Virus record (IMG/VR): IMGVR_UViG_3300017978_000327
Location: 1 to 43,435 of that record
Reading direction: 5' to 3' (one strand)
Source of the DNA: a virus
Length of the DNA stretch: 43,435 nucleotides
The notes below the pieces were generated by a model. It worked only from the letters and a program-made list of their open reading frames with translations. It was not told where the DNA came from and made no database searches. Positions 1-43,435 of the stretch are shown here, piece after piece. The position numbers were made by a program, and so were the translations under genes. Positions within the stretch are counted from its first letter, which is position 1, and each line of letters begins with the position of its first letter.

Positions 1-55
1 ATAGATAATAATGAATAAAGTGCTTGCACAATAGTAAAACTGGTGTTATTATTCC
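1..55. repeat. Terminal direct repeat identical to 43381..43435 (circular-closure overlap of the contig)
   Basis: Read directly: ATAGATAATAATGAATAAAGTGCTTGCACAATAGTAAAACTGGTGTTATTATTCC is present at both window ends, 55/55 nt identical. Confidence 0.95.
24..52 (+). promoter_or_regulatory. sigma70-type promoter P1 with extended -10
   Basis: TTGCAC (24-29), 17-nt spacer, TATTAT (47-52), TG at 44-45 (TGtTATTAT). The -35 sits inside the 11-nt motif AGTGCTTGCAC (19-29), which recurs at 12848-12858. Confidence 0.6.
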
Positions 56-76
56 CTCATCACATAGGGGGAATTT

Positions 77-844
77 ATGAAAAAAACACTACTCGCAGCA
101 CTCGCACTATCCGGTATCGCCGGAATCGTAGCAATCAATTCAATGTCAGCGCCAAGGGTGGTTACATATGACCATCCTACCATCTCAGTAGTATCCACGC
201 AGGAACAACAAAAAATAGATATAACCACTGTCAGTGACGCATCAAGCGAAGTTGACGGCAAATGGCTAGGCTTGTGTCCTAAACGCTCCGTAGACAGCAT
301 ATCGTCATTTCGTAATACGGTCATGGGCGATCCTGTTCTAGTAAGAGAATATCAGGGTTTCCAGTGGAACAAGGCAAGAGAAGGCCAATTGCAGGAAGAA
401 ACGCTTGCCACAGTTACCCACAGGTCAGGTTCATCAATCCTGCCATCTTCAAAGCAAATAAAACTACCTGCCGGGGATAGATACATTACTGATGGTAATA
501 TCACTGTGCGTATGTTTTGCTGTAATGGAATCAGCACAATTGAAACTATTCCAGGCATAGTCGAAACACCAATCATCATCAATGTACCAAACTACTCAAA
601 TTTGTATCCTGTAACGCTCCCTGAATCATTTTATGGTGGTGGTAGTGGTTGGTACTCAGGTGGGCCAGGTATTTATCACAGCAGGGCATACGGTAATATT
701 TCAAGCAATATTGTATCAGGTGATGATATTGGAAGTGATGACACAAATGGAGGCAATACAAGTCCCGTACCTGAACCAAAGACACTATTACTTTTTGGTG
801 CTGGTTTAGTTGGTCTTGGATTGTTTAGGAAAAGGAATATTTGA
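77..844 (+). CDS. Secreted PEP-CTERM sorting-signal protein (exosortase substrate-like)
   Basis: AGGGGGA SD precedes the ATG. N-terminal Sec signal peptide MKKTLLAALALSGIAGIVAINSMSA. C-terminus VPEPKTLLLFGAGLVGLGLFRKRNI matches the PEP-CTERM pattern: PEP, hydrophobic helix, basic cluster, then stop. Confidence 0.85.
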   Translation: MKKTLLAALALSGIAGIVAINSMSAPRVVTYDHPTISVVSTQEQQKIDITTVSDASSEVDGKWLGLCPKRSVDSISSFRNTVMGDPVLVREYQGFQWNKAREGQLQEETLATVTHRSGSSILPSSKQIKLPAGDRYITDGNITVRMFCCNGISTIETIPGIVETPIIINVPNYSNLYPVTLPESFYGGGSGWYSGGPGIYHSRAYGNISSNIVSGDDIGSDDTNGGNTSPVPEPKTLLLFGAGLVGLGLFRKRNI

Positions 845-897: not shown

Positions 898-1389
898 ATG
901 AATAATTTAAAACCGTGCGCTTATTGTGGAGGACAAGTGCTCCGCCACTCTCGGGGAGAAGTTGGAAACTTGCATTGGATTTATTGTAAGACTTGTAGGT
1001 CAGAGGGTCCAGTAGCAATGGGTTTAGACGAAGCAATTGAACTTTGGAACCACAGGGTTTTGTATGATTATAAAACCACTGGAGCCTTTGGGCCTGAGTG
1101 GGAAAATGAAATGATGAAGTGGAACAAGAAGAGATTGATATCACAAATCAAGGCCGAGTGGTCCGCGAAAAATGATTGGTGGAACAAGTTCCCAGATATC
1201 AAACCAAAGGACCAGCAACTTTGTATTGTTGCCGGTGGACCTGGGATGGTTGCTCAGATTATTCCTTTGCGCTGGAATGAAAAGAAGCAAGAGTTTACAT
1301 GGCACGAAGACTCAGATTGGTTGCAGATTGATGATTATCCAACGGAAATATCAACACATTGGATACCATGGCCTGATGATCCTCAATAA
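898..1389 (+). CDS. Lar-family (restriction alleviation-like) zinc ribbon fused to a DUF551-like C-terminal domain
   Basis: PCAYCGG...YCKTCRSEGP...DEAIELWNHR fits the Lar-family pattern. The C-terminus ...ISTHWIPWPDDP resembles DUF551. The track ORF starts at TTG 841; in-frame ATG 898 is preferred. Confidence 0.6.
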   Translation: MNNLKPCAYCGGQVLRHSRGEVGNLHWIYCKTCRSEGPVAMGLDEAIELWNHRVLYDYKTTGAFGPEWENEMMKWNKKRLISQIKAEWSAKNDWWNKFPDIKPKDQQLCIVAGGPGMVAQIIPLRWNEKKQEFTWHEDSDWLQIDDYPTEISTHWIPWPDDPQ

Positions 1390-2833: not shown

Positions 2834-3046
2834 ATGAAAAAAATCAAGTTATCACCTAACCATATCAAATACGGGAAATGGTCTTTTGACTACAATCCTA
2901 AACCTATCCCAGACAGAAGATGGGATTACGACTGTATGCATGATGAATTTGATGGAGAGAATGGAGACTATTTTTTCAACGCAAGTTCTATTGACGCGGC
3001 CATAAAAGAGGCAGACGAGCGAGAAACATATCTAGGTGATTTCTAA
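2834..3046 (+). CDS. Hypothetical 70-aa protein
   Basis: ATG 2834 directly follows the junction motif; the track ORF extends to 2774. Confidence 0.6.
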   Translation: MKKIKLSPNHIKYGKWSFDYNPKPIPDRRWDYDCMHDEFDGENGDYFFNASSIDAAIKEADERETYLGDF

Positions 3047-3063
3047 AACAACAAGGGGGCAGT

Positions 3064-3249
3064 ATGAAGAAAACAGAAACAGAAATAACTTTTAACCTCG
3101 ATGAGTTTGATAACCTAATCCGCCTAGTCTACAAAAACGGCATAAGCGACGGAAATGTAATGTCAATCACCGGGGATTTCGAGTGGACGAAAAGGGATGA
3201 AGAGGCGGCTGATTGGTGGGATAGAAACAGGGATGAGTTTTTGGCGTAG
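3064..3249 (+). CDS. Hypothetical 61-aa acidic protein
   Basis: ATG 3064 directly follows the fourth junction motif. Confidence 0.6.
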   Translation: MKKTETEITFNLDEFDNLIRLVYKNGISDGNVMSITGDFEWTKRDEEAADWWDRNRDEFLA

Positions 3250-13121: not shown

Positions 13122-13292
13122 ATGCGTAAACCAACAAACTACCAAAGCAGGGGGAAAGTACGAGGCGAAAGAATCAGCCTACAACTTCCCCCTGATCTAC
13201 TCCGCTGGTTGCGTGACCGGCAGAAAGAGGACGGTTTGAGCAATAGTGCGCGGATTGTTAGAATAATTAGTGAACATTTGGGGGTGAAATGA
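13122..13292 (+). CDS. Ribbon-helix-helix (Arc/CopG-like) DNA-binding protein (below cutoff)
   Basis: Own translation: MRKPTNYQSRGKVRGERISLQLPPDLLRWLRDRQKEDGLSNSARIVRIISEHLGVK. This gives beta-strand ISLQLP followed by two helices. ATGA overlap with the next gene. Confidence 0.65.
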   Translation: MRKPTNYQSRGKVRGERISLQLPPDLLRWLRDRQKEDGLSNSARIVRIISEHLGVK

Positions 13293-13537
13293 AGCGACTA
13301 CTATCAGCAATAGCACTATCACTGCTTCTGGCATCATGCAGCAATTTTAACGACGACTTAGAGGTTGCGGTGCTAAAAAATAATGATGGGGAATATACCT
13401 GCAAAGTAAATGATATGTTAGCATGGTATGTTTTTGAAACTTACGAAGAAGCGGAATCACATTGCGCCGAGTGGAAAAAGAACATACTGGAAAGGAGAGA
13501 AAGACAAAGCCAGAAGTGGGAAAATGTGAGTAAATGA
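13289..13537 (+). CDS. Lipoprotein
   Basis: MKRLLSAIALSLLLASCSNF: signal peptide with lipobox LLAS-C. Confidence 0.75.
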   Translation: MKRLLSAIALSLLLASCSNFNDDLEVAVLKNNDGEYTCKVNDMLAWYVFETYEEAESHCAEWKKNILERRERQSQKWENVSK

Positions 13538-31432: not shown

Positions 31433-32617
31433 ATGAAAATGGTTTGGCTTTTTATCATAGCAATTTTCGGATACACTAGCTGCTTTGCAGAGATTGAACC
31501 AGTTACCACAGGGGTTGGTGTTTATGCCTCTGATTGGGCGACTATCCTCAATGCAAATGATGCTGAACTGGACGGTAACAAACTAACTTCCCTTACTATA
31601 CCATCCGGTAGCACTCTCCGGGCCACATTAAAAGATGCGTCTTATGTCGAAGTTGACCTATCTGGGATAGTTGGTACTGGTGGTGATGACCAGACAGCCT
31701 CAGAGGTAGTTTTTACCCCAAACGGGAGTATTGCCGCAACTGACGTTCAAGCTGCAATTCAAGAGGTTCGTGATGAAGCTGGTTCAGGGGCGAGTGAGTT
31801 AGATGCATTAACCGACGTCGGTGGAGATGGTACGGCAGGGTATGTACTTTATGACGACGGGGACGGTACGTTTAGTTTTGCTGCTGCGCCTGACTCAATG
31901 GTTTATCCTGGCGCAGGAGTACCCATATCGCTTGGTGTAACAGGATGGGACGACTCGCTAAGTTTCACTGAGCTTGTTCAATCCCTCCCCGGATCCGACC
32001 TTGCCACTCAGCTTGACGGCGAGGACTTGGCTCCTGGCTCAGTTACCATGCCTGCCACAGCAACACCTACCGCTTCTTTTAAAGACTCAGGTAGTTTGGA
32101 TGCAGATCAAACAATTGCGACCATCGGAGCTAATGCTACCACGGAAACAGCCGGTAGTGTTGAAAGTGATGTGTTGTTTTACAATAAATATCGGAGTGCG
32201 TCTGGTGTTTTTGATCGCTATATGTGGATGGATGGATCGGAGCAGACATTTAAGTTTGATGTGCCTATTTCTTCCGACGATCCAATATCCGCACCGATAA
32301 CCACAGCAACCGATGCTGACGCTCACACGCTTACCTGGGAAGAATATCATGGTGGCTCAGTCTTGGCAACCGGGGCAGGAGTTTATACCTTGCCTGCTGC
32401 TGCTGACGGTTTAACTGGATGCGTTGAGGCTGGTCAAGGTGTTGCTGCGATTATTCAACTGCTACCAGCTTCCGGCGATTATATCGTTTATGAGGGAGCA
32501 AGAGGCACAGCCGCAACATCGTTAAAGTCAAGTGGGGCTACTGGTGATAAGATTTGCTATACAGCCTACAACGCTGATGACTGGTATGTATCAACCTTTG
32601 GAACATGGGCGGAATAA
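31433..32617 (+). CDS. Signal-peptide-bearing tail-fibre-like protein
   Basis: GGAG SD. N-terminus MKMVWLFIIAIFGYTSCFA-EIE. Contains DDQTASEVVFTPNGSIAATDVQAAIQEVRDEAGSG, identical to a segment in the 36474 gene. Confidence 0.8.
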   Translation: MKMVWLFIIAIFGYTSCFAEIEPVTTGVGVYASDWATILNANDAELDGNKLTSLTIPSGSTLRATLKDASYVEVDLSGIVGTGGDDQTASEVVFTPNGSIAATDVQAAIQEVRDEAGSGASELDALTDVGGDGTAGYVLYDDGDGTFSFAAAPDSMVYPGAGVPISLGVTGWDDSLSFTELVQSLPGSDLATQLDGEDLAPGSVTMPATATPTASFKDSGSLDADQTIATIGANATTETAGSVESDVLFYNKYRSASGVFDRYMWMDGSEQTFKFDVPISSDDPISAPITTATDADAHTLTWEEYHGGSVLATGAGVYTLPAAADGLTGCVEAGQGVAAIIQLLPASGDYIVYEGARGTAATSLKSSGATGDKICYTAYNADDWYVSTFGTWAE

Positions 32618-33060
32618 TGAAGATATTATATTTTTTGATGGCTTTTATCCTGCTTGCTGCAAGTGCAAATGCGAGCCAGTGGTGTCAGTGGGATGGAACA
32701 CAGGGCCTTGAGTGTCAAAGTGATGCGCGGGGATATATCAAGATATCAGGTTTTCCGGTTAAAACTCCTGCAATAGCTAATGCAAGGGGATATTTCAAAG
32801 TCACCGACACAATCCCAGAATTAACAGCAACACAAAAGTTCGGTGCCATTGTCTGGGAGAAAGTAGGAAACGATATAAACCGGACTTACACCGTCGTTGA
32901 TAAAACCACGACTGAGAATGACGAAGACACGGCCAGAGCATTGAGCCTAGAGATGTACGTTGTTCTGAAATGGATGGTGGCCCAGGGTGTTATCAATCCT
33001 GCAACTGCACCAACAGCACTAAAAAACGCTTATCTTGCCAGACAGAGGATTGAAGAATGA
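32617..33060 (+). CDS. Secreted 147-aa protein, unknown function
   Basis: ATG 32617 (TAATG overlap). N-terminus MKILYFLMAFILLAASANA-SQW. Confidence 0.7.
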   Translation: MKILYFLMAFILLAASANASQWCQWDGTQGLECQSDARGYIKISGFPVKTPAIANARGYFKVTDTIPELTATQKFGAIVWEKVGNDINRTYTVVDKTTTENDEDTARALSLEMYVVLKWMVAQGVINPATAPTALKNAYLARQRIEE

Positions 33061-33773
33061 TAGTCCATCTTCTGATATTAGCAGCACTTTTACACGCTAG
33101 TGATTGCTACGGGATAGGTGCAAATTCTCCTGAAAAGTTTATTGGTCCGTCCGGCCCTACAACCTGTACCCTGACCGCGCAGGATTTTACCACTTATACG
33201 GAGCAGGACGCTTATTCGCAGATAACCGTAACGTCTGGCGCAATAGTTTATGAAGGAGCTGGAAACAATACCGCATATGTAAGGAAGGATTTCACGGCAG
33301 GACATTTCAACGGCGATTTTACCATGAAGTTTGAATGGACAAAATCGACCACCAATTCTGAAGAGTATGGTCGGGATTATAGCCCAATTCTGATTAATTC
33401 GACCGCTGAAGTTTACGGCAATACTTCAAACTTTGTGGCAGTTGAAAATTACAGATCAACCACAAACACTGTTTTCAGGATTGTGACAAACAACGGCGGA
33501 ACGGTCAGTTACTCGTCAGGTGTTGCAATAACCGAAGGGACAAATTACTTCCTGACTTTTAGCTATGACTCAGCAGAAGGAACGTACGGACGATACACCC
33601 TTGATGTTTATAGCGGGTCACACACAGGAACACTAATTGGCAGCGTGACAAGAGATGCCATAGAATCGGCAAGCTACCGTTATTTATATGCATATGATAC
33701 AAATAAGACAGGTAGTGCCTATGACAGTGAAGGAATCATTGCAAACTATGAGATCGGTCTATGTTTAGAATAA
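33057..33773 (+). CDS. Probable secreted beta-sandwich (lectin/jelly-roll-like) protein
   Basis: ATGA overlap. Hydrophobic N-terminus MIVHLLILAALLHASDCYG, a weaker signal peptide with no basic n-region. Confidence 0.65.
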   Translation: MIVHLLILAALLHASDCYGIGANSPEKFIGPSGPTTCTLTAQDFTTYTEQDAYSQITVTSGAIVYEGAGNNTAYVRKDFTAGHFNGDFTMKFEWTKSTTNSEEYGRDYSPILINSTAEVYGNTSNFVAVENYRSTTNTVFRIVTNNGGTVSYSSGVAITEGTNYFLTFSYDSAEGTYGRYTLDVYSGSHTGTLIGSVTRDAIESASYRYLYAYDTNKTGSAYDSEGIIANYEIGLCLE

Positions 33774-36010
33774 TCCTGGCATTGTGCCTCATTGTTCCGT
33801 CGATTGCTGGTGCTGCAACGTCAGTAACCAAGGATTCAATTACCTGGAATTTCAACGCTGATTACACAGTCGGTCAATTCGTCACTGGCGACTGGTACGT
33901 TGTGGCTCCATCTGGTTTGACTGTCACAAGTATCACCGAGACAAGTTCCTATGCTCTTGGCGGCTCGATGAAAAACCCTAACCCTGCTCTCAAGAAACAA
34001 GGGTACTTTGACAATGGCACTGACACCAACAAAGCAGCATATGATGCAACTTTAAACGTAGGCAGTTCGAGTATTTCGTTAGTTGCCGGCGATATGCTGA
34101 TAAGCACCACGATATATCCTTATTACGGGGTAGTTTATGATGGAGAAAAAAACTATACAATGATAGATGAGGCGGCGATCTTGACCGTTTTATCTGCTGC
34201 CCCTGCCTACGGCGCAGACTCCTTTCGACCTGGTATCTGTGACACGACAAGGACAGTATACAATTCGGCCAACATTGACTACGACCAATTAGCTGACGTA
34301 ACACCTGCCAGTGGTGCACCTAGTTTAAGTGCGGTTGAGGAACTCTTCGCAAGGCCGTGGATAGATCACTACGCTGGCCCTCCTGGCCGGTCGATTCATC
34401 CTCACAATAACATGCGGGATTATGGTGGAGAGATAAGCGTAGACATAGGCAACGCCGCCCTGCTGGTGAATACTAATCTTACAAACGCACAGAAAAAGCC
34501 GCTGACAGTTGGGCTTATTCAGATGGGTATTGACACATACAGCATGGTAACTCGTAACAGGAGATTGTTTGATATATCTCCCGCACATACAGTCGGTAGA
34601 AAATTCCCGGTTCTATTTGCCGCCAATGTTATGAACATTACGGCTTTTAAATCATTTATTCAGAGAACCGGACAATACATGACTGCAACCTGGGGTGTGC
34701 TCCCTAGTGATGCTTATGTGTTTGACGAGGATTATACGTCTTATGTTCGCAGTGAAGATGTCTCAGTAACTGCCACAGGTACTGCTCAGTATTTACCAGA
34801 TTATAACTATACTTCTGCTATGATCGGGATGCCTGAATGGTTTCATCACGATTTTACCAATCGGGCGAAGAGTAATGCCGCATGGACACCAGATCCTTAT
34901 CGGTTTCTTTCCAGTTCGACATATTATGGTGCGGCAACTGCAACTATCCTGATGGGGGCAAGGAGCCAGTGGAATAACCAGGCATACTTTGATTACATAT
35001 CCCGCTTGGCAGCGATTACCCGAGGTAGTGCCGATCCTAACGGTTTTACTGTTCCGCTTGAAGCATCAGGAAACAGTACCGCATATGGGAGTAATTGGGG
35101 TTTGGCTATGTGGGACTTGTACAGTGATAGTGTAACCGGCAATACTCCGCCTTCTCGAACCAATCTAGGCCCAACAAGCCTGCTGGCATCAGGAACAACC
35201 ACGGCGACACTGACAGTCGATGCGACCGACGCAGAAGGTAGTGTGGCAGGATGCAAGGCAAATACTACTGACGTTGCCTACGCTTCGATGTCCATTACCA
35301 TGACAGGATCACTTGGCACTTACACTTATGGTCTTACCGGACTGACTGATGGATCAAGTTATAATTATTATGTGCGCTGCATCGACGATGAGGGGCTGGC
35401 AAACACAACTAGTTCTTTGATAAGTTTTTCCGTTGATGAAGCAGTAGTGGATCAAGTGTGTGACGCTAACCATTACTGGTTGTGTGAGACTGATGAGACT
35501 TGTGTTGGAGCAGGACACTCTTACTATGACAGTTTTTGCCATAGCGCAACTTTACCGTCAAATGTGGTAGGCGGTAACCTCTTAACCAATCCGACTTTAA
35601 CCTGGGCTGGTGCAACCTTAACCGGATGGGATTTACCCTACTCAGGAGTAACAGCAATTTCCGGTGGTGGGGCTAAACTTACCGCGGGTGTAGCATGGCC
35701 ACCGGCTGCTATCAGGCAACGTATAGGCAGTATTGGTGATGGTAAAACTTATATAGTCGTTGCTGATGTAAGCGCATCGACAGATCAGCTTGAACTTTAC
35801 ACCACGGCAGAGGGGATTCAATATTTTTATGGACTCCCCAGGACTGTTATAACTGAATTTACTACTAACGGCGACAACTGGATGTATGTTCAGACGCATC
35901 ATACCGCTGTCAGGTATAACGATGTCTTGCATGTCGGGGTTTACGAGGTTCGGAATCGACCGGCAGGCTCTAATGTCGGTATGGGCTTTTCAGGCGTGAC
36001 GATACAATAG
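33761..36010 (+). CDS. Secreted multidomain carbohydrate-active-like protein (catalytic-size N-domain, FN3/Ig-like module, Cys-rich linker, CBM-like C-terminus)
   Basis: N-terminus MFRIILALCLIVPSIAGA-ATS. The module ...CKANTTDVAYASMSITM...YNYYVRCIDDEGLANTTS is shared with the 39046 gene. The C-terminal GGNLLTNPTLTWAGATLTGW... is like CBM4/9-type modules. Confidence 0.75.
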   Translation: MFRIILALCLIVPSIAGAATSVTKDSITWNFNADYTVGQFVTGDWYVVAPSGLTVTSITETSSYALGGSMKNPNPALKKQGYFDNGTDTNKAAYDATLNVGSSSISLVAGDMLISTTIYPYYGVVYDGEKNYTMIDEAAILTVLSAAPAYGADSFRPGICDTTRTVYNSANIDYDQLADVTPASGAPSLSAVEELFARPWIDHYAGPPGRSIHPHNNMRDYGGEISVDIGNAALLVNTNLTNAQKKPLTVGLIQMGIDTYSMVTRNRRLFDISPAHTVGRKFPVLFAANVMNITAFKSFIQRTGQYMTATWGVLPSDAYVFDEDYTSYVRSEDVSVTATGTAQYLPDYNYTSAMIGMPEWFHHDFTNRAKSNAAWTPDPYRFLSSSTYYGAATATILMGARSQWNNQAYFDYISRLAAITRGSADPNGFTVPLEASGNSTAYGSNWGLAMWDLYSDSVTGNTPPSRTNLGPTSLLASGTTTATLTVDATDAEGSVAGCKANTTDVAYASMSITMTGSLGTYTYGLTGLTDGSSYNYYVRCIDDEGLANTTSSLISFSVDEAVVDQVCDANHYWLCETDETCVGAGHSYYDSFCHSATLPSNVVGGNLLTNPTLTWAGATLTGWDLPYSGVTAISGGGAKLTAGVAWPPAAIRQRIGSIGDGKTYIVVADVSASTDQLELYTTAEGIQYFYGLPRTVITEFTTNGDNWMYVQTHHTAVRYNDVLHVGVYEVRNRPAGSNVGMGFSGVTIQ

Positions 36011-36017
36011 GAGCGAT

Positions 36018-36464
36018 ATGTTTAACTTAGGATTAGGACTGATGAGCGGCGGTAACGCAGGAATACCGAAACGTGCCCCAGGTGATTTCTCGGTAAGGTG
36101 GACAATAGTAAATGCTGAACCGCTTACAGAATACACAAGTAGACCAGTTAAGCTGATTCTTGCCAGTAACACTGCAATAGCAGTGATAGGGTCATCTTCC
36201 TACTCACTTAATGGTGGTGCATTTACAGTCGATGCAGGAACAGCGCATAATAACGATATTCTTCTGGTTAAAGACGACTCTCCTGATGTTTATACAACTG
36301 ACCTTGAATCACCTGAACAGACTGACGGTGGCGTGACAATAGGTATTGTTGCTTGTCCTTTTACGATAATAGCCAAAGTTGATCCTGCGACGCTTGTTTC
36401 GCAAATAGTATTCCAAGACGGTGACGGGGTATTAACCCAAGACGGGGATATATTAATCTTTTGA
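36018..36464 (+). CDS. 148-aa beta-rich protein without signal peptide
   Basis: ORF inside the operon. N-terminus MFNLGLGLMSGGNAGIPKRAPG is not signal-like. Confidence 0.6.
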   Translation: MFNLGLGLMSGGNAGIPKRAPGDFSVRWTIVNAEPLTEYTSRPVKLILASNTAIAVIGSSSYSLNGGAFTVDAGTAHNNDILLVKDDSPDVYTTDLESPEQTDGGVTIGIVACPFTIIAKVDPATLVSQIVFQDGDGVLTQDGDILIF

Positions 36465-36473
36465 GGAAATGAT

Positions 36474-39044
36474 ATGAAAAAACTATTTTTAGTGGTTGCC
36501 CTTGTTGCCGTTTGCGGTTCTGCTTATGGGGCAGATAAGCGAGTTACTGACCTTACCGCACAGACGGAAGCAATAGCAAGCGGCGATCTTCTTATGAGTG
36601 TTGACGTTAGTGATACAACGGACCATGCCACTGGTTCATCAAAGAAGGCTACATATACCCAAGTTGGCACTTATTTTGCGACTTTATTTGCTCCGATTGC
36701 AAGTCCAACATTTACAGGAACTTTATCTGCTCCTGAAATAATTGCAACAGGATCAGGCGGATTGAAGTCGGGTGTAGCAAGTTCTCAACAGGGTGCATTG
36801 ACGCTTTATTCAAATGTCAATCCCTATGCTTTCGGGTTGACCCCCGCAGCAACTCCCGCAGAAACATTTTCTTTCAAGGCTCCTGCTGCACAGGCAACGG
36901 CTGATGGTGCTTTGCTAACTGTAATAGATCACACTACCGGGCAATTAGGATATACTGCTCCATCGAGTTTAGCGGACGGAACAGGGACCGACGACCAGAC
37001 GGCAAGCGAGGTTGTTTTTACTCCTAATGGTTCAATAGCGGCAACAGATGTACAGGCTGCAATCCAAGAGGTTCGTGACGAGGCTGGTTCTGGCCACACT
37101 GAGGTTACACTTTCGACCGATCTTGGCAATAATCTTCTTGGTTTGTCTACTCAGACGATCTCACTTGATAACCAAAATGCCAACATAGTTTTCGCTGGCC
37201 CGACTACCGGAGCAGCAGCCGCACCTACTTTCAGGAGCTTGGTTGACGCTGACATTCCGAGCGCAATAGCGAGGGACACTGAGATTATAGCGGCTCCGAC
37301 AGATGCAACCATTTCAACTTCAGCGGTGGCAACCAATGATGCGAGCACCAGTAAACATGGCTGGCTGATGATGGCTACCGCTCCTGCCGCCGGACTTAGA
37401 AATATTCTTGCCATTGATAATGCGGAAACGGGATATAAAAACGCTGCACTGTTTGACACTACATCTCCTGAGTCACAGGCATTCGGTGATTCAGCGGCTG
37501 TTGGTTCGGCAATGACTGCGGCAAGGCGAGATCATAAGCACGCTATGCCAGCGGCCCAGACTCCAACAAGCCTTAACCTGCTTATTGGTACGAACACTCA
37601 AGCTTATGATGCTGACCTTGACGACCTGGCAGACGGTTCTTTAACTGGTACAAAACTTGGAATTTCCGATGCTGGAAACTATTTCACTGGAACCAATGCC
37701 GAGACAGTTTTGCAGGAACTTGGTGCAAAACTCCCCACTGGTTCAGATGGCACATATGGTCTTCTCTTGAACAACAACACTACCAGAACACCTACCGCAA
37801 CAAGTTATGAATTGTACCCTGATGGAGGGGTATGGAAAGCAAATACAAACGGAACGGAAAACACAATAGCTATAGGCCCGTTAGCAGGTCAGGTATCATT
37901 TACTGGCCCGACAACGGCTAGGGCTTATGCTCTTCCTGATGCGGCTGCAACGATTCTATATTCTGGTGGTGCTCTTGGAACTCCTTCAGGGGGAACTCTT
38001 ACTAACGCCACAGGGCTTCCAATAGCCGGGGTTACTGGTTGGGGTACAGGAATCGCTACGGCGCTTGCAATTAACACGGGGTCGGCTGGTGCACCAGTAT
38101 TGTTTAATGGAGCAGCAGGAACACCTTCATCTCTCAACCTTACAAATGCTCTGGTAAATTCAGGAACATCTCTCCCTGGAACATGCACCGCCGGGGCTTT
38201 ATTCATTGACACCGATGCTGACACGAACGGGCAACTATATTCATGTGTGGCAACAAACACTTGGAAAGATGTTGATGATGACGGTGGGGCGGGTGGAATG
38301 GCAACCACTGATATTGATACCAGCTCTGAATTATCCACAATCCTGACTGACGAGGTTGGAACAGGTTACTCGGTGTTCAACACTGCCCCAACTTTTGTAA
38401 CCTCTATAGCTCCGACAACAGCAGATGGTGCAACCATAGGTACCGCCGCTCTTGAGTGGTCTGATATTTACCTTGCAGCCGGTGGGGTGATTAATGGTGA
38501 GAATGGACAGGAGAATAAAATAACCAGTTCTGCAACAGGTTGGAACTTCAACCTTCCTATTGGTAACTATCAAGCAAATGACCCAGACGTAGCGGCAGAA
38601 GGAAAGATGGGTTGGGATGCAAATGGTGATTGGCTGAGAATCCATGACGGCACCAACCAAGTAGCTGTAGCCAGAAAACTTGAATGCTATGATGCAACAG
38701 TTGTCAGTCCGAACGATCTGGCTGATGCAACTCGTGATGCTTTTCGGATGTGGCAGAACAACAGCGGAATGAGTTTTGTTGTCACATCATGGACTGCTCA
38801 AAGTGCGGCTGACAACACCGATATAAACATTGAGACAACCACGAACACTGGCGGAACTAATGCAACCGTTGATGCGGTTTCAATAACCACTGACGGAACC
38901 GGCCTATTTTATGCTTCTGATGCCACGATTACCGCTGGAACTATAACAACCGGAAGTATAATCTGGCTAGACTTCGACGATACCGACGATCCAGGTTGGG
39001 TATCGGTCAGCGTGTGTGGTTACTATAACGGAGATGTCAACTAA
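36474..39044 (+). CDS. Signal-peptide-bearing large tail-fibre-like adhesin
   Basis: N-terminus MKKLFLVVALVAVCGSAYG-ADK. Fibre-type motifs: APTFRSLVDADIP, AARRDHKHAMP, CTAGALFIDTDADTNGQLYSCVATNTWKDV. Shares the 35-aa module with the 31433 gene. Confidence 0.8.
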   Translation: MKKLFLVVALVAVCGSAYGADKRVTDLTAQTEAIASGDLLMSVDVSDTTDHATGSSKKATYTQVGTYFATLFAPIASPTFTGTLSAPEIIATGSGGLKSGVASSQQGALTLYSNVNPYAFGLTPAATPAETFSFKAPAAQATADGALLTVIDHTTGQLGYTAPSSLADGTGTDDQTASEVVFTPNGSIAATDVQAAIQEVRDEAGSGHTEVTLSTDLGNNLLGLSTQTISLDNQNANIVFAGPTTGAAAAPTFRSLVDADIPSAIARDTEIIAAPTDATISTSAVATNDASTSKHGWLMMATAPAAGLRNILAIDNAETGYKNAALFDTTSPESQAFGDSAAVGSAMTAARRDHKHAMPAAQTPTSLNLLIGTNTQAYDADLDDLADGSLTGTKLGISDAGNYFTGTNAETVLQELGAKLPTGSDGTYGLLLNNNTTRTPTATSYELYPDGGVWKANTNGTENTIAIGPLAGQVSFTGPTTARAYALPDAAATILYSGGALGTPSGGTLTNATGLPIAGVTGWGTGIATALAINTGSAGAPVLFNGAAGTPSSLNLTNALVNSGTSLPGTCTAGALFIDTDADTNGQLYSCVATNTWKDVDDDGGAGGMATTDIDTSSELSTILTDEVGTGYSVFNTAPTFVTSIAPTTADGATIGTAALEWSDIYLAAGGVINGENGQENKITSSATGWNFNLPIGNYQANDPDVAAEGKMGWDANGDWLRIHDGTNQVAVARKLECYDATVVSPNDLADATRDAFRMWQNNSGMSFVVTSWTAQSAADNTDINIETTTNTGGTNATVDAVSITTDGTGLFYASDATITAGTITTGSIIWLDFDDTDDPGWVSVSVCGYYNGDVN

Positions 39045-39045
39045 T

Positions 39046-40734
39046 ATGAGATACTTAATTGCGATATTATTGGTCCTGATGTGCTCTGTTGCATGGGCCA
39101 GGACTGTTACGGTTGGGCAGGCTCCGGTTGTTGCTGGTGGACCGGAGATTACATATGTCTCAACTGGCACAGTAGCTGGAGGTGCAACTCCGGCAGCAAT
39201 CACACCTGGAATACCATCGTCAATCCAGGCCGGAGACTTACTCGTTCTCGCTGTTGAAAACAAATACCCGACAAACTCACCGTCTACTCCGACAGGATGG
39301 ACGCTTTCAAGTAATTGCCAGGGTTCGGGTGGGGCGAGTACAGCGGCGGCTGACTCAGGGACGGTTTATTCAACAGTTTTCTGGAAAAAAGCAATTGGCA
39401 ATGAATCAGGGACCCAAACAGTAACAATCACATCTGCCAACTCCAGCCGGGGTGCTATCGTCGCGTATCGACCAACATCCGGTTATGAGATTACTCCGGT
39501 CTGCACGAACGGGGCATACTCCCACGGGTCAACGACTTCATGGAGTGCAACCGGGGCAGACGATCCAGGTTTTGCGGCTGGCGATTGGGCAGTCGTGGCT
39601 AGTGCCAACAACTCTGATCTTGCGGCATCGTTCAGTTCCCAAGCGATGACCGCAACCGGTTATACGTTTGGCTCGATGACTGAGCGTGTGGATTCTGTAG
39701 AGTCTCAAGGAAACGATTCTTCATTAGTTGTTGCGGATTTTGCCTCAGGGACTGGAACCAGTTCAGATGTACCGACGTATACCATGACCGGGGCGACGAA
39801 TGGCACGAACACTCCGGCAGGATCTAGCGTAATCGTAAGGTTGCGACCAGTAGCCGATACCACGGCACCGACAATTAGCGCGGCTTTACCTTCTGCGAAC
39901 GTATCATGTCCGGAAGACCCGACAGCCGTAACCATCGGAGTCACTACTGACGAAGCCGCGAATTGCAAATGGGATACTTCAGACACCACTTACGAGCTGA
40001 TGGCAAATACTTACAGCACCGGCCAAGGCGCATCAGTGCATACCACTTCAATTGGCAATCTAGCTTGTGAGGCCACGGCTACCAGATACACACGATGTGC
40101 TGACACACTTGGCAATGCCAATAGTTCCAGCACCACCCACAGTATCACGATGGCGGCATTAAGTACCGGGAATAGTGATTCGTTTACCGGAACAGATGAT
40201 ACATTGCTGGCAACTCATGATAGTAATTGGGTTAACGCTAACAGTACATATACTGTAGCCGGTTTTGAGCTTTACTCAAACACCGTAAGGCCGGTAGGAT
40301 CATACGACACCGCAGGGGCCAGATACAATATTAGTACATCTGATATTTCTCAGGCTGTCTATAAGGGTGGGCGATCAGGTGATCAAACGACCAGCTATGC
40401 CGCCGTTAGAATGAACGGTACATCTCTTGGGTATAGCTGTATTTTTTCTGGTGCAAGCGGTGGGAACTGGACTATTGTTGATGTTCAGAAAGACGGGAAT
40501 TGGGTAGCCCAAGCAATAACCGGAGGCACCTGGGCGCAATCAGCAGACCACACGATGAGAGTACGAGCTTCTGGGACGGGCGGTACGGTAACAGTTTACT
40601 GCTCTGTCGATGGCGGATCGGAAGGAAGCTACGCCGATTCTACCGCTCCATATACAACCGGTTTACCTGGATTAGTCGGCTATGCTGACGGAACGATGAT
40701 AAACGCAACATTCGATGATTGGACGGATGAATGA
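39046..40734 (+). CDS. Secreted protein with FN3/Ig-like module and lectin-like C-terminal domain
   Basis: ATG 39046, 1 nt after the previous stop; the track start is GTG 39016. N-terminus MRYLIAILLVLMCSVAWA-RTV. Module ...ANCKWDTSDTTYELMAN...RYTRCADTLGNANSS. Confidence 0.75.
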   Translation: MRYLIAILLVLMCSVAWARTVTVGQAPVVAGGPEITYVSTGTVAGGATPAAITPGIPSSIQAGDLLVLAVENKYPTNSPSTPTGWTLSSNCQGSGGASTAAADSGTVYSTVFWKKAIGNESGTQTVTITSANSSRGAIVAYRPTSGYEITPVCTNGAYSHGSTTSWSATGADDPGFAAGDWAVVASANNSDLAASFSSQAMTATGYTFGSMTERVDSVESQGNDSSLVVADFASGTGTSSDVPTYTMTGATNGTNTPAGSSVIVRLRPVADTTAPTISAALPSANVSCPEDPTAVTIGVTTDEAANCKWDTSDTTYELMANTYSTGQGASVHTTSIGNLACEATATRYTRCADTLGNANSSSTTHSITMAALSTGNSDSFTGTDDTLLATHDSNWVNANSTYTVAGFELYSNTVRPVGSYDTAGARYNISTSDISQAVYKGGRSGDQTTSYAAVRMNGTSLGYSCIFSGASGGNWTIVDVQKDGNWVAQAITGGTWAQSADHTMRVRASGTGGTVTVYCSVDGGSEGSYADSTAPYTTGLPGLVGYADGTMINATFDDWTDE

Positions 40735-42404
40735 AATATACTATAGCTCTAATATTATTGATATTATCAACGACTCAGTCTAATGCTGCAACTTACTATG
40801 TATGCGGTTCTGCATCATCCTGCAATTCTGGGAACGGTTCTCCTTCCGGGTGGTCAACCGGGGCCAGTGGGAATAGCGGGCTGTCAAAGGCCGCGCCAAA
40901 GGCAACCATCGCTCAGGGCATTGCATTATTGACTACCGGCGCGGGCGATACTCTAATAATTGGAAACGGTAATTATGTAAATCAGCAGATCCTTACAGCT
41001 CCATCCGGCACTTCCGGGGCGTACACTAAAATTCATGCCGAGAATACAGGTGGTGCCGTGATTGACATGAGTTCAGCAACTGCGTGGGATAGTTGCGGGC
41101 TGCGTACAGGCGGTGATGATCATCATATAGAGTTTGATGGTTTAAAAATTCGAGGAAATCCGGCTCTGGGGGATACAAACGGTGTCGTCGAAATTTACGG
41201 TAGCTATATTAAACTGTTCAGGATTGCCGCATATGGTCAAGGGGAGGTTGGCACCAACTATGTATTTGCAACGATGTCTGGCTCTCATCATATTCTTATA
41301 GAGGAGTGCTGGGTTTGGGGTGGAGGTAGGTATAAATTTTTGGCATATGAATCATCCTATGTGGTCATGCGCCGTTGTGTTTCCAGGCACGATTGGAACG
41401 ATGACGGCGGAGGTGATGGTAGATCGCAACAGGCTTGTTTCACTAACTATGATTCATCTAATACTTTGTTCCAGAATTGTATTGCTATTGATTCCGGCGC
41501 TGTCGGAACACCACAGACTATGTACGGTGCGTGGTGGGACGAGAATAACGCGGCTGTATTGAAAACTGGTAAAATTACAAGTAGTATAATTCTGAACATA
41601 AGGACCAATTTTGCAGGAATGCATGACAAGCCCAGTGGCAATAGAACCATTGAGAATAGCATCATTTGGGATTCTAACGGTGGATGGGGTACTGCTGATT
41701 ATTATGGATATAGTGCGCCAACAATAAGCATCAACAAGATGACAATTGGGCAGATTATAGGAAATTACGACAGTGGTTGGCCGATTGCCCAGGGGACTGG
41801 CGTTAAGTATGGAGTTAGCGGTGGTTCAACAACTGTGACCGACTCTATTATTACAGGTGCGGCTGATTATGGTTTGGCTGAATGGGTAACTAACGATTAT
41901 ATCTCCTTTTATAATAACGGGGCCAACTACGGCGGATTAGAACATACGCCAACAGCCGGGGCGCACAACATAACAAATATCAATCCACTGACAAATTGCC
42001 TAAAATACCTCCCCCGCATCGAGTCAGCAAACTGCTCATTATACACGGCTGGGTCAAGTGGTGGACGGATCGGGGCGGAGATACTTTACAAGCATGGCAC
42101 GTCCGGGACACTGTATGGTGAAACTGGGTACGACACGTTGACGAGCGAACCGCTCTGGCCGTTTCCGAATGAAGATTTAATTAAGGCAGATTACGCTACT
42201 TATTCAGCTCATAGCATATCAGGAGCCAGAGGATTTGCGGCAACAGGAAATCAACTTGACGGGGCAACTCCAATTACCTTGACATCTTATATCTGGGAGT
42301 ACCTGGGCAATGAGATGCCTGCAGAGATTTATGGAGAGGAAGAGCCAGTCGCAGTAGCACCACTAACAGGCGGAAGTTGCCCAGGCTGCACGATCACTCA
42401 ATGA
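40731..42404 (+). CDS. Secreted right-handed beta-helix protein (polysaccharide lyase/hydrolase-like)
   Basis: ATGA overlap. N-terminus MKYTIALILLILSTTQSNA-ATYYV. YYVCGS...SKAAPKATIAQGIALLTTGAGDTLIIGNGNY is the typical N-cap of DUF1565/pectate-lyase-fold proteins. Confidence 0.75.
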   Translation: MKYTIALILLILSTTQSNAATYYVCGSASSCNSGNGSPSGWSTGASGNSGLSKAAPKATIAQGIALLTTGAGDTLIIGNGNYVNQQILTAPSGTSGAYTKIHAENTGGAVIDMSSATAWDSCGLRTGGDDHHIEFDGLKIRGNPALGDTNGVVEIYGSYIKLFRIAAYGQGEVGTNYVFATMSGSHHILIEECWVWGGGRYKFLAYESSYVVMRRCVSRHDWNDDGGGDGRSQQACFTNYDSSNTLFQNCIAIDSGAVGTPQTMYGAWWDENNAAVLKTGKITSSIILNIRTNFAGMHDKPSGNRTIENSIIWDSNGGWGTADYYGYSAPTISINKMTIGQIIGNYDSGWPIAQGTGVKYGVSGGSTTVTDSIITGAADYGLAEWVTNDYISFYNNGANYGGLEHTPTAGAHNITNINPLTNCLKYLPRIESANCSLYTAGSSGGRIGAEILYKHGTSGTLYGETGYDTLTSEPLWPFPNEDLIKADYATYSAHSISGARGFAATGNQLDGATPITLTSYIWEYLGNEMPAEIYGEEEPVAVAPLTGGSCPGCTITQ

Positions 42405-42571
42405 CCTGGCTAAAAGACCTATTCAGCGCAAACGTACAGGCAGACAAAACGACGCAGCGCGTTGAATTGTGGTTGAATGTTGGGAACTTAATTAAAAGGA
42501 TTGTGAGCAGGCCGGAACGTGATGGCAGGGAGCAAAAACCCGATAAAGTCTACACTAGAGGTGAGAAATGA
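42401..42571 (+). CDS. 56-aa hypothetical protein
   Basis: ATG 42401 forms an ATGA overlap with the previous stop. The track ORF extends to 42377. Confidence 0.45.
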   Translation: MTWLKDLFSANVQADKTTQRVELWLNVGNLIKRIVSRPERDGREQKPDKVYTRGEK

Positions 42572-42807
42572 AACAGTGGTTTTTTAGGTTCTGGGATTTG
42601 CATGGTGATAGGACAATATTTCTAACTGGTGCAACTCTTATGTCCCTGCTTCTGATAGCGGTTGGTGTCTCGTTTGAGGGATTTGAGGATCTTGTTAGCG
42701 CAGGAAAGACTACATTGGTTATGATCCTTGGTATTCTCGTAAACAAGGCCAGATCCCCAGAGGCTAAGTTTGATGAGAAAGAAGTTGACGCACAGGTCAA
42801 CGGATAA
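42568..42807 (+). CDS. Two-TM membrane protein, holin-like
   Basis: ATGA overlap. IFLTGATLMSLLLIAVGV and TTLVMILGILV are hydrophobic helices. Charged C-terminal tail. Confidence 0.55.
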   Translation: MKQWFFRFWDLHGDRTIFLTGATLMSLLLIAVGVSFEGFEDLVSAGKTTLVMILGILVNKARSPEAKFDEKEVDAQVNG

Positions 42808-42832
42808 CCCTGCCGTCTAAGGAAACTTTACA

Positions 42833-43165
42833 GTGATAGATACATTCGTGAAACTTGTATCAGCAAAAGCAGTGGAGCATTGGGAAGGGATAGCAACTCT
42901 TGTCGTTATTGTGTTGTACGGAAGAAACGATTACCGGGTAACGAAACTTGAAAGAGAAGAGGCAAAAAGGACTACTGCTGACTGTGACAGGCTGATGCAT
43001 AGTTGCGGATTACTCAACAATGAACGTCACAATGAAGGCAGAAGAGAACTTGACGGTATTGTAAATGCACTCAATCGGTTGGGTGATGCGGTGCGAGTTG
43101 ACATAAAAACCACGAATGATAAATTGGACAAGTTGATAGACTATATGATTGAGGCAAAGAAATGA
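42833..43165 (+). CDS. Single-TM plus coiled-coil membrane protein (spanin- or antiholin-like)
   Basis: GTG start with AAGGAA SD. GIATLVVIVLYG is a TM segment, followed by a charged helical region. Confidence 0.45.
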   Translation: MIDTFVKLVSAKAVEHWEGIATLVVIVLYGRNDYRVTKLEREEAKRTTADCDRLMHSCGLLNNERHNEGRRELDGIVNALNRLGDAVRVDIKTTNDKLDKLIDYMIEAKK

Positions 43166-43184
43166 CAGGAGTAAGGGAGCCATA

Positions 43185-43388
43185 ATGTGGAAACTATGGA
43201 TAGTAGCCAGCCTATGCGACAATTGTGGAAAATGTGAAGAAACTATCCCTTGGCTGCTATCCCAACACGATCAGACGATTTATATTAATATATCAAGAGC
43301 AAATGCTGATGAGCTGCTGGCCGATGCCAAGGAAATTGTCAAAAACTGCCCACAGGGAGCGGCAAGACTCCGGTGCGCTAATAGATAA
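43185..43388 (+). CDS. Single-cluster [4Fe-4S]/[3Fe-4S] ferredoxin
   Basis: ATG 43185 with AAGGGAG SD. MWKLWIVASLCDNCGKCEETIP...AKEIVKNCPQGAARL aligns by eye with Thermotoga maritima Fd [20 protein letters not shown]...AKDAADSCPTGAISV, giving CxxCxxC ... CP. Confidence 0.7.
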   Translation: MWKLWIVASLCDNCGKCEETIPWLLSQHDQTIYINISRANADELLADAKEIVKNCPQGAARLRCANR

Positions 43389-43435
43389 TAATGAATAAAG
43401 TGCTTGCACAATAGTAAAACTGGTGTTATTATTCC
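43381..43435. repeat. Second copy of the 55-nt terminal repeat
   Basis: Identical to 1..55. It contains the last 8 nt of the ferredoxin CDS and promoter P1. Confidence 0.95.

Follow-up and report, generated by a model that had tools for sequence, protein, structure and literature searches.

A PEP-CTERM protein of an unnamed bacterial family encoded by a P22-like podovirus

Proteins belonging to the PEP-CTERM/exosortase pathway, such as the flocculation protein PepA of Zoogloea, combine an N-terminal signal peptide with a C-terminal tag made up of a PEP motif, a hydrophobic helix and a basic cluster, and are attributed to sorting by exosortases of the EpsH or XrtA type (PMC1569441). The pathway is widespread among environmental, floc- and biofilm-forming bacteria and is biochemically poorly understood. 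A gene with the same predicted layout is present at positions 77 to 844 (plus strand, stop codon 842-844) of the IMG/VR virus record IMGVR_UViG_3300017978_000327; throughout, 'the window' refers to the whole stretch of viral DNA that was analysed, namely positions 1 to 43,435 of that record. The likeness extends to the genomic setting, as cellular homologues of the encoded 255-aa protein adjoin EpsH-EpsI exosortase genes and genes for exopolysaccharide (EPS) biosynthesis, whereas the window protein differs in being encoded by a tailed phage without an exosortase and in having a passenger domain that lies outside the named subfamilies. Its identity as a genuine PEP-CTERM protein is well supported at the sequence level, and we consider it probable, at roughly 0.6, that the gene represents an accessory gene of host origin (a 'moron') encoding a true exosortase substrate, which would be delivered to the cell surface or matrix and change the properties of the envelope or biofilm.

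The coding sequence, whose predicted product is identical in two assemblies, opens with an ATG codon; the protein begins with MKKTLLAALALSGIAGIVAINSMSAP and ends with VPEPKTLLLFGAGLVGLGLFRKRNI. The preliminary description of this DNA had recognised a PEP-CTERM signature in the C-terminus and had called for a search with the corresponding hidden Markov models (HMMs), and that search bears the assignment out: within the C-terminal 24-26 residues TIGR02595 scores 22.3 bits against a curated cut-off of 16 and PF07589 26.9 bits against 20.7, the matched residues being 230-253. The sorting domain (PVPEP, membrane helix, RKR) thus comprises residues 230-255 (positions 764-841), and the extreme C-terminus reads VPEP-KTLLLFGAGLVGLGLF-RKR-NI-stop. 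When open reading frames (ORFs) of at least 60 aa were surveyed in six frames over the whole window, no other showed a membrane helix at the C-terminus with a basic tail behind it. At the other end, a predicted Sec signal peptide, MKKTLLAALALSGIAGIVAINSMSA, covers residues 1-25 (77-151) and consists of MKK, a 17-aa hydrophobic stretch and NSMSA; it has the n/h/c layout, scores high on a hydropathy heuristic and coincides with a helix at residues 2-23 of the AlphaFold2 (AF2) model; its cleavage is presumed. Between these two signals lie a conserved domain of about 105 aa (residues 50-155, positions 224-541) and a low-complexity linker rich in Gly, Ser, Tyr and Asp (residues 156-229, positions 542-763), which is predicted to be disordered, with a predicted local distance difference test score (pLDDT) of 45-66.

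The protein does not belong to any named PEP-CTERM subfamily, because the eleven named subfamily models that match it do so over the tail alone (the last ~25-40 residues) and far below their cut-offs (14-31 bits versus 50-125). Membership in the PepA, THxN, EDSAP-1, FxDxF, XDP1, cistern and other named subfamilies was accordingly ruled out, none giving a full-length match above cut-off. A word-indexed protein search returned only three matches per run, and an exhaustive phmmer search against 1.84 billion cluster representatives revealed a sizeable family, with 629 matches at E <= 1e-3 and 149 at E <= 1e-10 (E-values from 1e-40 to 1e-10), that is, at least 149 cluster representatives, the best non-self match being 43% identical. 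The architecture is constant in the alignments: an N-terminal membrane anchor or signal is followed by the ~105-aa domain, by a variable, usually Pro-rich linker, and by VPEP with its helix and basic tail. The domain is marked by the motifs DASSE, GKWxGLCxK, DPVL, YITDG and R..CCN(D), and its conserved residues, in the numbering of the phage protein, are W63, G65, L66, C67, K69, D85, L88, F95, A100, V113, R116, I121, T138, D139, G140, R145, C148, C149 and N150. The phage copy keeps the invariant and near-invariant positions of the family; moreover, the PEP motif (P232/E233/P234) and the tail are conserved across the bacterial members, and the phage protein is homologous to them over its whole length. 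Where it departs from them is at the N-terminus and in the linker, as the bacterial homologues have a longer, basic N-terminal signal anchor and a Pro-rich linker of variable length, and the phage copy has a short signal and the Gly/Ser/Tyr/Asp linker noted above. By its sequence, then, the product of 77-844 is a member of an unnamed PEP-CTERM family, defined here by the 'DASSE...CCN(D)' domain.

This passenger domain is uncharacterised and has no counterpart of known function. No Pfam, NCBIfam or PHROG model matches it, and a sequence-profile search of the PDB gave no match. In the AF2 models the domain is predicted with confidence (pLDDT >90 within the full-length protein; pLDDT 87.7 and predicted template modelling score 0.79 for the domain alone) as two short helices followed by seven beta-strands. 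When the full-length and the domain-only models were compared with the PDB by Foldseek, neither had a match below an E-value of 0.001 (the best E-values were 0.24-0.27, with a query-normalised TM-score of at most 0.23), and a sole match in BFVD (E = 1.2e-3) was judged meaningless, its root-mean-square deviation being 25 A.

The bacterial relatives were also examined in their genomic setting. A scan of one genome per species yielded 22 loci, from Desulfobulbales (Desulfopila, Desulforhopalus, Desulfobulbus), Geobacterales, Pelobacter and metagenome-assembled genomes (MAGs) of Nitrospirae (Nitrospirota), whose neighbouring genes were clustered and subjected to domain searches; the contigs of the nearest homologues (P0004, P0005, P0009) measure 1-1.7 kb and are uninformative for neighbourhood. 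Directly upstream of the family gene in three loci (L001, L015, L019) lies a fused EpsH-EpsI exosortase, which matches TIGR02602 with 192.6 bits (cut-off 105.6) and is nearest to XrtD/XrtW but under the subtype cut-offs; that of L001 sits in a polysaccharide-biosynthesis locus. A fourth locus, L010, encodes an XrtA/PEP-CTERM-associated ATPase (TIGR03015, 288 bits, just under the cut-off of 324.5) two genes upstream of the family gene, with one same-strand gene between them. Together with the HMM scores and the retention of PEP and tail in a full-length bacterial family, these upstream exosortases support the exosortase reading given in the preliminary description.

A second association is with signalling by cyclic di-GMP (c-di-GMP). 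A LapD-like gene (LapD_MoxY_N, GGDEF and EAL domains) adjoins the family gene in nine loci (L003, L004, L006-L009, L011-L013), eight of them from Desulfobulbales/Desulfobacterales and the ninth, L013, from a Pelobacter MAG, and six of the nine also contain a BTLCP/LapG-like protease (PF06035). These linked loci show three distinct gene orders, which argues for a functional linkage of the family gene with the LapD/LapG-like genes. In ten loci (Geobacterales, Nitrospirae, a Pelobacter MAG and the untyped L001) the family gene is adjoined by genes with CAP/SCP domains. One such neighbour, a long form from a Geobacterales genome (L024, 8432-9886), joins a CAP/SCP (YkwD-like) domain to N-terminal c-di-GMP-binding domains of the MshEN type (NF053729, three copies, 146.5 bits versus a cut-off of 38); its BLAST cluster-mates in L013 (8462-9745) and L015 (8571-9839), for which the Pfam scan alone is available, show the CAP domain and a sub-threshold DUF4388. 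As judged from these neighbourhoods, the family is tied to both exosortase and c-di-GMP effector modules, and since relatives stand beside exosortase/EPS genes, LapD/LapG-like genes and genes for c-di-GMP-binding CAP proteins, the passenger domain may act in adhesion or matrix biology under c-di-GMP control.

A known module of this kind is the LapA/LapG/LapD system, in which c-di-GMP governs the release of surface proteins and the substrates of LapG have an N-terminal retention module with a (T/A/P)-A-A-(G/V) cleavage site and leave the cell by type-1 secretion. The likeness lies in the LapD-like genes and PF06035 proteases that accompany the family gene in nine and six bacterial loci, respectively. 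The differences are considerable, as the family proteins are ~250 aa long, apparently Sec-exported and PEP-CTERM-tagged rather than giant type-1-secreted adhesins with an N-terminal retention module, and the phage carries neither LapD nor LapG. A reading of the window protein itself as a LapG substrate was set aside, the protein being small and apparently Sec-exported and no conserved di-alanine site being visible in the alignments, which were inspected by eye with no motif search. No giant adhesin or type-1 secretion genes were seen near the LapD/LapG-like genes of the bacterial loci, and these loci with their small PEP-CTERM gene may represent a non-canonical LapDG module. The searched literature holds no mention of LapG together with PEP-CTERM.

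How the gene came to reside in a phage can be approached through a second viral copy. The family domain was found on one further viral contig in the IMG/VR scan (L025/L081, 66 kb), where it is flanked by genes for the head and for tail fibres; the phage in question has a terminase, a portal, a major head protein and tail fibres. A neighbour-joining tree built from the domain places this copy within a Desulfobulbales clade, with 78% domain identity to a Desulforhopalus MAG. The window copy forms a long branch on the Desulfobulbales side when the tree is rooted at its midpoint, and is most similar (55-56% identity) to Desulforhopalus and Desulfopila. These positions, and an identity of only 52% between the copies of the two phages, indicate that two unrelated phages captured the family independently from Desulfobulbales-like hosts. 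By homology, the window phage probably infects a member of the Desulfobulbales. At 0.43 (0.34 at third codon positions), the gene has a GC content that equals that of the phage (0.432) and lies below the 0.47-0.54 of the bacterial loci. This composition, together with the long branch, suggests an old resident rather than a recent accident, and a recent accidental capture was rejected on the same two grounds; the phage-like GC content and the retention of the conserved family residues point to a long-resident gene under selection.

With respect to the phage itself, bases 1-55 of the window are identical to bases 43381-43435, an assembly overlap that marks circular closure, and an independent Logan assembly from another read set, which is circularly permuted relative to the window, reads across the window ends for 2115 nt with 0 mismatches. 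The phage accordingly has a genome of 43,380 bp that is either circular or a circularly permuted, terminally redundant molecule, and the point at which it was cut is arbitrary. It follows that the position of the PEP-CTERM gene as 'first gene', on which the preliminary description had dwelt, is an artefact of linearisation without biological meaning. Similarity searches with PHROG and Pfam models identify a P22-like podovirus with all genes examined on the plus strand: its virion genes include those for both terminase subunits (small and large), for a portal of the P22 type (phrog_156, E = 1e-109), the major head protein, an Hc3 head-closure protein, ejection proteins and a tailspike that has the head-binding domain of P22 (PF09008), and its early region encodes a Lar-like protein, NinB, an HNH protein, ERF, SSB, a RepB-type primase and a helicase. 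On the circular map the PEP-CTERM gene sits between the late or tail end and the early genes, in the order beta-helix gene (40731-42404), three small ORFs (two of them encoding membrane proteins), a gap of ~290 nt, the PEP-CTERM gene, and the gene for the Lar-like restriction-alleviation protein (898-1389, plus strand; phrog_599, E = 8e-8), with which the early or host-takeover genes begin; that for NinB is at 1962-2420 on the plus strand. Integrase and repressor genes are absent from the ORFs examined, which account for all those of 300 aa or more, and the phage genome contains no exosortase gene, implying dependence on an exosortase of the host. No tRNA genes are present in the window. A megablast search against 50,697 phage records was empty and tblastn gave only a chance match; IMG/VR scans with the PEP-CTERM protein and both neighbouring genes likewise produced nothing useful as a close relative.

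P22-like phages have accessory genes that modify the cell surface, such as the gtrABC genes for O-antigen conversion downstream of the tailspike gene. The window phage resembles them in its P22-type virion module and in having envelope-directed cargo between the tailspike and the early genes, and differs in that this cargo consists of Sec-exported proteins, including a predicted exosortase substrate, rather than inner-membrane glycosyltransferases, and in that no integrase was detected. The cargo is extensive. A run of eight ORFs downstream of the tailspike gene (31433-42404, plus strand, ~11 kb) includes seven, of 394, 147, 238, 749, 856, 562 and 557 aa, whose products have N-terminal signal peptides according to the hydropathy heuristic; by the same heuristic none of ~33 replication and virion ORFs encodes a classical signal peptide. 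The GC content of this region is 0.46-0.50 versus ~0.40-0.43. As virion proteins are not normally Sec-exported, about a quarter of the genome appears to be exported cargo; the region looks like ~11 kb of exported proteins rather than tail fibres, and the PEP-CTERM protein appears to be the last member of the set in circular order. A direct repeat of 104 nt (77% identical, 31685-31788 and 36990-37093), common to the 394-aa and 856-aa signal-peptide proteins, suggests domain duplication or exchange within the run.

The nearest of these proteins to the PEP-CTERM gene, a right-handed beta-helix protein of 557 aa (40731-42404, plus strand; PF13229, 27.3 bits versus 25.9), is 40-54% identical to many homologues that match it over the full length, almost all of them from metagenomic contigs that are uncharacterised. 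Each of the nine that were inspected has an N-terminal signal peptide; at least two of these end in MYXO-CTERM-type tails, and the source gives that name to several more. One homologue, of 905 aa and with a signal peptide (L151, 3050-5767), adjoins an Mtd-like tail gene in a different, integrase-bearing phage. Immediately upstream of the PEP-CTERM gene, two small membrane proteins are encoded at 42568-43165 (plus strand), one of 79 aa with two hydrophobic segments and the other of 110 aa with a membrane helix at its N-terminus and a charged region that resembles a coiled coil. Neither matches a PHROG, Pfam or lysis-family model, and to regard them as holin- or spanin-like lysis genes is a guess. 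No endolysin was identified anywhere in the genome.

The region upstream of the gene invites comparison with the lysozyme gene e of phage T4, in which the late promoter is situated within a hairpin; in early read-through RNA this hairpin masks the ribosome-binding site. At 25-52 (plus strand) there is a sigma-70-like site, here called P1, composed of TGCACA, a 16-nt spacer and TATTAT with an upstream TG (9/12 matches), and the preliminary description took it for a strong promoter; this view is not supported, as sites of its quality are no commoner than in shuffled sequence (3 found versus 3.8 +/- 1.9 expected). A better-scoring promoter-like sequence, TTGACA-16-TAAATT (10/12 matches), occurs at 43098-43125. 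The hairpin that had been described over the ribosome-binding site does exist, although it is formed by 8 bp between 51-58 and 67-74 (plus strand), where it engages GGGGGAAU, and not between 50-55 and 68-73; its folding energy is -10.7 to -15.5 kcal/mol (z = -2.4 to -2.8 against shuffles) and it persists in a 125-nt read-through context. The ribosome-binding site itself, GGGGGAA at 67-73, resembles in its GGGGG core those of other genes of the same phage. The -10 element of P1 (47-52) overlaps the 5' arm of the hairpin, so that RNA starting ~7 nt past it (around position 59) is without this arm, and its ribosome-binding site is not covered by any significant structure (z = -0.1). P1 and the hairpin therefore cannot act on one transcript, and the picture of a leading gene governed by promoter and hairpin together needs revision on both counts, the gene not being a leading one and the two elements excluding each other. 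A possible reconciliation is that read-through RNA from upstream genes is translationally silent and RNA from an internal promoter is translated. The likeness to T4 gene e is that the -10 element lies in the 5' arm and that the hairpin can form only in read-through RNA; the difference is that the present arrangement is purely predicted and its promoter lacks statistical support. No terminator-like site was found between 43165 and the PEP-CTERM gene, and Rfam searches at gathering and permissive thresholds gave no riboswitch (for example, for c-di-GMP) upstream of it. Most of the ~290-nt gap is occupied by an uncalled ORF (43149-43388, plus strand; 79 aa, or 67 aa from an internal ATG) with a CxxCxxC motif and no PHROG match, which ends within the assembly overlap.

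If the gene is indeed an accessory gene for an exosortase substrate, its product might act as follows. Translation would probably occur only from transcripts that start at or past the promoter-like site in the 5' arm of the hairpin, the ribosome-binding site being hidden in read-through RNA. The protein would then be exported by the Sec pathway through its signal peptide, its cysteine-containing domain of ~105 aa would fold in the periplasm, and the PEP-CTERM helix, with RKR on the cytoplasmic side, would hold it in the inner membrane until a host exosortase (EpsH/Xrt family) recognised VPEP and removed or exchanged the anchor. The released domain could be passed to the cell surface or the exopolysaccharide matrix, where the phage copy, along with the seven upstream signal-peptide proteins, would remodel the host envelope or matrix. 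Several observations weigh against this scheme. The biochemical action of exosortases on PEP-CTERM proteins is itself still a model, even in bacteria (Haft 2006, PMC1569441), and most of the Desulfobulbales loci have no exosortase within 10 kb of the family gene. With neither tRNA genes nor close phage relatives no host was identified, and that the true host has an exosortase is a presumption. The passenger domain has no relative of known function, in sequence or structure, and its proposed physiological role is deduced from gene neighbourhood. Moreover, P1 is statistically indistinguishable from chance, and the lack of an integrase or repressor leaves lysogenic conversion unsupported, so that expression may be confined to lytic infection.

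Other explanations assign the protein a different task. Rather than a surface effector, it might be a decoy or competitor that saturates or blocks the host exosortase, a LapG-like protease or LapD; PEP-CTERM proteins and adhesins of the host would then be mis-sorted and the matrix would loosen, letting progeny phage escape or the cell disperse. This notion draws on the fact that the phage copy differs from its relatives precisely where targeting is set, that is, in its short, cleavable-type signal and its Gly/Ser/Tyr linker, on the tight linkage of the cellular relatives to LapD/LapG-like genes, and on the resemblance of the neighbouring secreted beta-helix protein to polysaccharide-degrading enzymes. 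A pure sorting-signal decoy would have no need of a passenger domain, yet this domain is conserved as well as in the cellular members; no canonical LapG di-alanine site is evident by eye in the alignment, where the conserved motif is DASSE, and a decoy of this kind has no experimental precedent, so we think it unlikely. Envelope-located exclusion proteins are known from other phages, and a protein that is predicted to be exported and membrane-anchored could in the same way keep the same phage or competing ones from adsorbing or from introducing their DNA, by superinfection exclusion or receptor masking. The location of the gene at the late/early junction beside a Lar-like host-takeover gene, the parallel with the surface-conversion genes downstream of the P22 tailspike, and the apparently independent capture of the family by two unrelated phages would all fit such a role. 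Its appeal is reduced by the failure to detect an integrase or repressor, as there may be no lysogen to protect, by the mainly cellular distribution of the family, which is tied to c-di-GMP and exosortase genes and not to phage defence, and by the lack of any PHROG match for the protein (PADLOC was not searched); we accordingly give exclusion a low probability.

Two further possibilities would remove the protein from sorting altogether or deny it a function. Captured host genes are common at module junctions, and the window copy has no close phage relatives that would demonstrate retention, both of which could speak for a functionless passenger, picked up by chance with host DNA and not yet lost. 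Against this stand an intact frame with all family-conserved residues, a strong GGGGG ribosome-binding site like those of other phage genes, a composition fully adjusted to the phage and a long branch, which speak for an old gene, and the capture of the same family, as it seems, by a second phage; we consider this possibility improbable. The gene also directly follows those for the 79-aa and 110-aa membrane proteins, and unimolecular spanins combine an N-terminal signal with a C-terminal membrane helix, a layout that the window protein shares. It could on this basis be a component of a lysis cassette, spanin-like or lysis-regulating, with an incidental resemblance to PEP-CTERM proteins. Against this, the tail scores above the curated cut-offs for PEP-CTERM, a lipobox cysteine is missing (indeed the first 66 residues contain no Cys), the small upstream proteins match no lysis family, and homology along its entire length ties the protein to a bacterial family that is chromosomal and found in non-prophage contexts. 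The spanin or lysis interpretation is largely refuted by this homology and the missing lipobox, and we regard it as highly improbable.

The accessory-gene interpretation is also backed by the occurrence of similar tails elsewhere among viruses. A stringent back-translated pattern (PEPxT..L.G.G), scanned over IMG/VR, was found on at least 119 contigs, and among the matches listed (83 in 80 loci) 81 of 83 are in-frame C-terminal tails, with a stop codon 18-45 codons past the PEP and a basic cluster. The proteins that bear the listed tails are mostly ~200-300 aa long; 72 of at least 120 aa, again among the matches listed, form 42 clusters, the largest of which has 13 distantly PepA-like members. 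Of ten viral proteins sampled, six pass the TIGR02595 cut-off, and two are distantly PepA-like over most of their length. The viral context was inspected in four loci, and some IMG/VR contigs may include host flanks. In the three inspected loci of the largest cluster (L052, 6744-7613; L085, 9698-10480; L096, 2472-3263) a P22-type portal lies within ~3 kb of the gene, and in the fourth, from the second-largest cluster, a primase-helicase is nearby. These proteins are thus like the window protein in size, in combining a signal peptide with a PEP-CTERM tail and, in some cases, in lying near P22-type portals, but they have other passenger domains, only L025/L081 sharing that of the family described here. 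Reports touching on the matter include TIGR03118-family proteins that were noted among genes of host origin in viruses from hot springs (PMC11003980) and a protein with a PEP-CTERM domain in the IME1 elements of Dehalococcoides (bioRxiv 10.64898/2026.09.15.751708); in the searched literature viral PEP-CTERM proteins receive only such incidental mentions, none treating them as a phenomenon or as a class of phage auxiliary function. Phage-borne PEP-CTERM is therefore not unique to the window, the phenomenon appears to be undescribed as such, and its context is uncommon but recurrent. A much broader proposition would hold that tailed phages routinely exploit the exosortase pathway, that the ~12-kb set of eight Sec-exported proteins, with the PEP-CTERM protein as its last member and with a beta-helix enzyme akin to those that degrade polysaccharides, acts during infection on a Desulfobulbales host in sediment to rewire its EPS matrix and the adhesion that is under c-di-GMP/LapDG control, and that the PEP-CTERM strategy recurs on more than 100 IMG/VR contigs; taken as a whole it strikes us as rather doubtful.

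A phage that supplies its own substrate implies an exosortase pathway that is active and exploitable during infection, and the protein could offer a small, portable substrate for the study of exosortases. The family also links a PEP-CTERM protein with LapD/LapG-like and MshEN/CAP c-di-GMP modules, an association absent from the searched literature, and the PEP-CTERM genes on many viral contigs raise the possibility that phages affect both aggregation and the properties of the matrix in sediments, in sludge and in blooms. A more general lesson is that no argument from a 'first gene' or a 'leader promoter' should be built on a linearised circular contig.

Two minor features of the genome may be added. 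In the 1.7-kb stretch of small ORFs that extends from the helicase to the small terminase, an ORF of 82 aa (13289-13537) with a lipoprotein signal (MKRLLSAIALSLLLAS-C) and no PHROG match could encode an exclusion lipoprotein or an o-spanin. Finally, a translation-initiation block of ~30 nt, AACAACAGGGGGCAGTATG, is repeated before several small early genes (2393-2426, 2595-2624, 2810-2847 and 3044-3073) and contains the same GGGGG ribosome-binding site as the PEP-CTERM gene.

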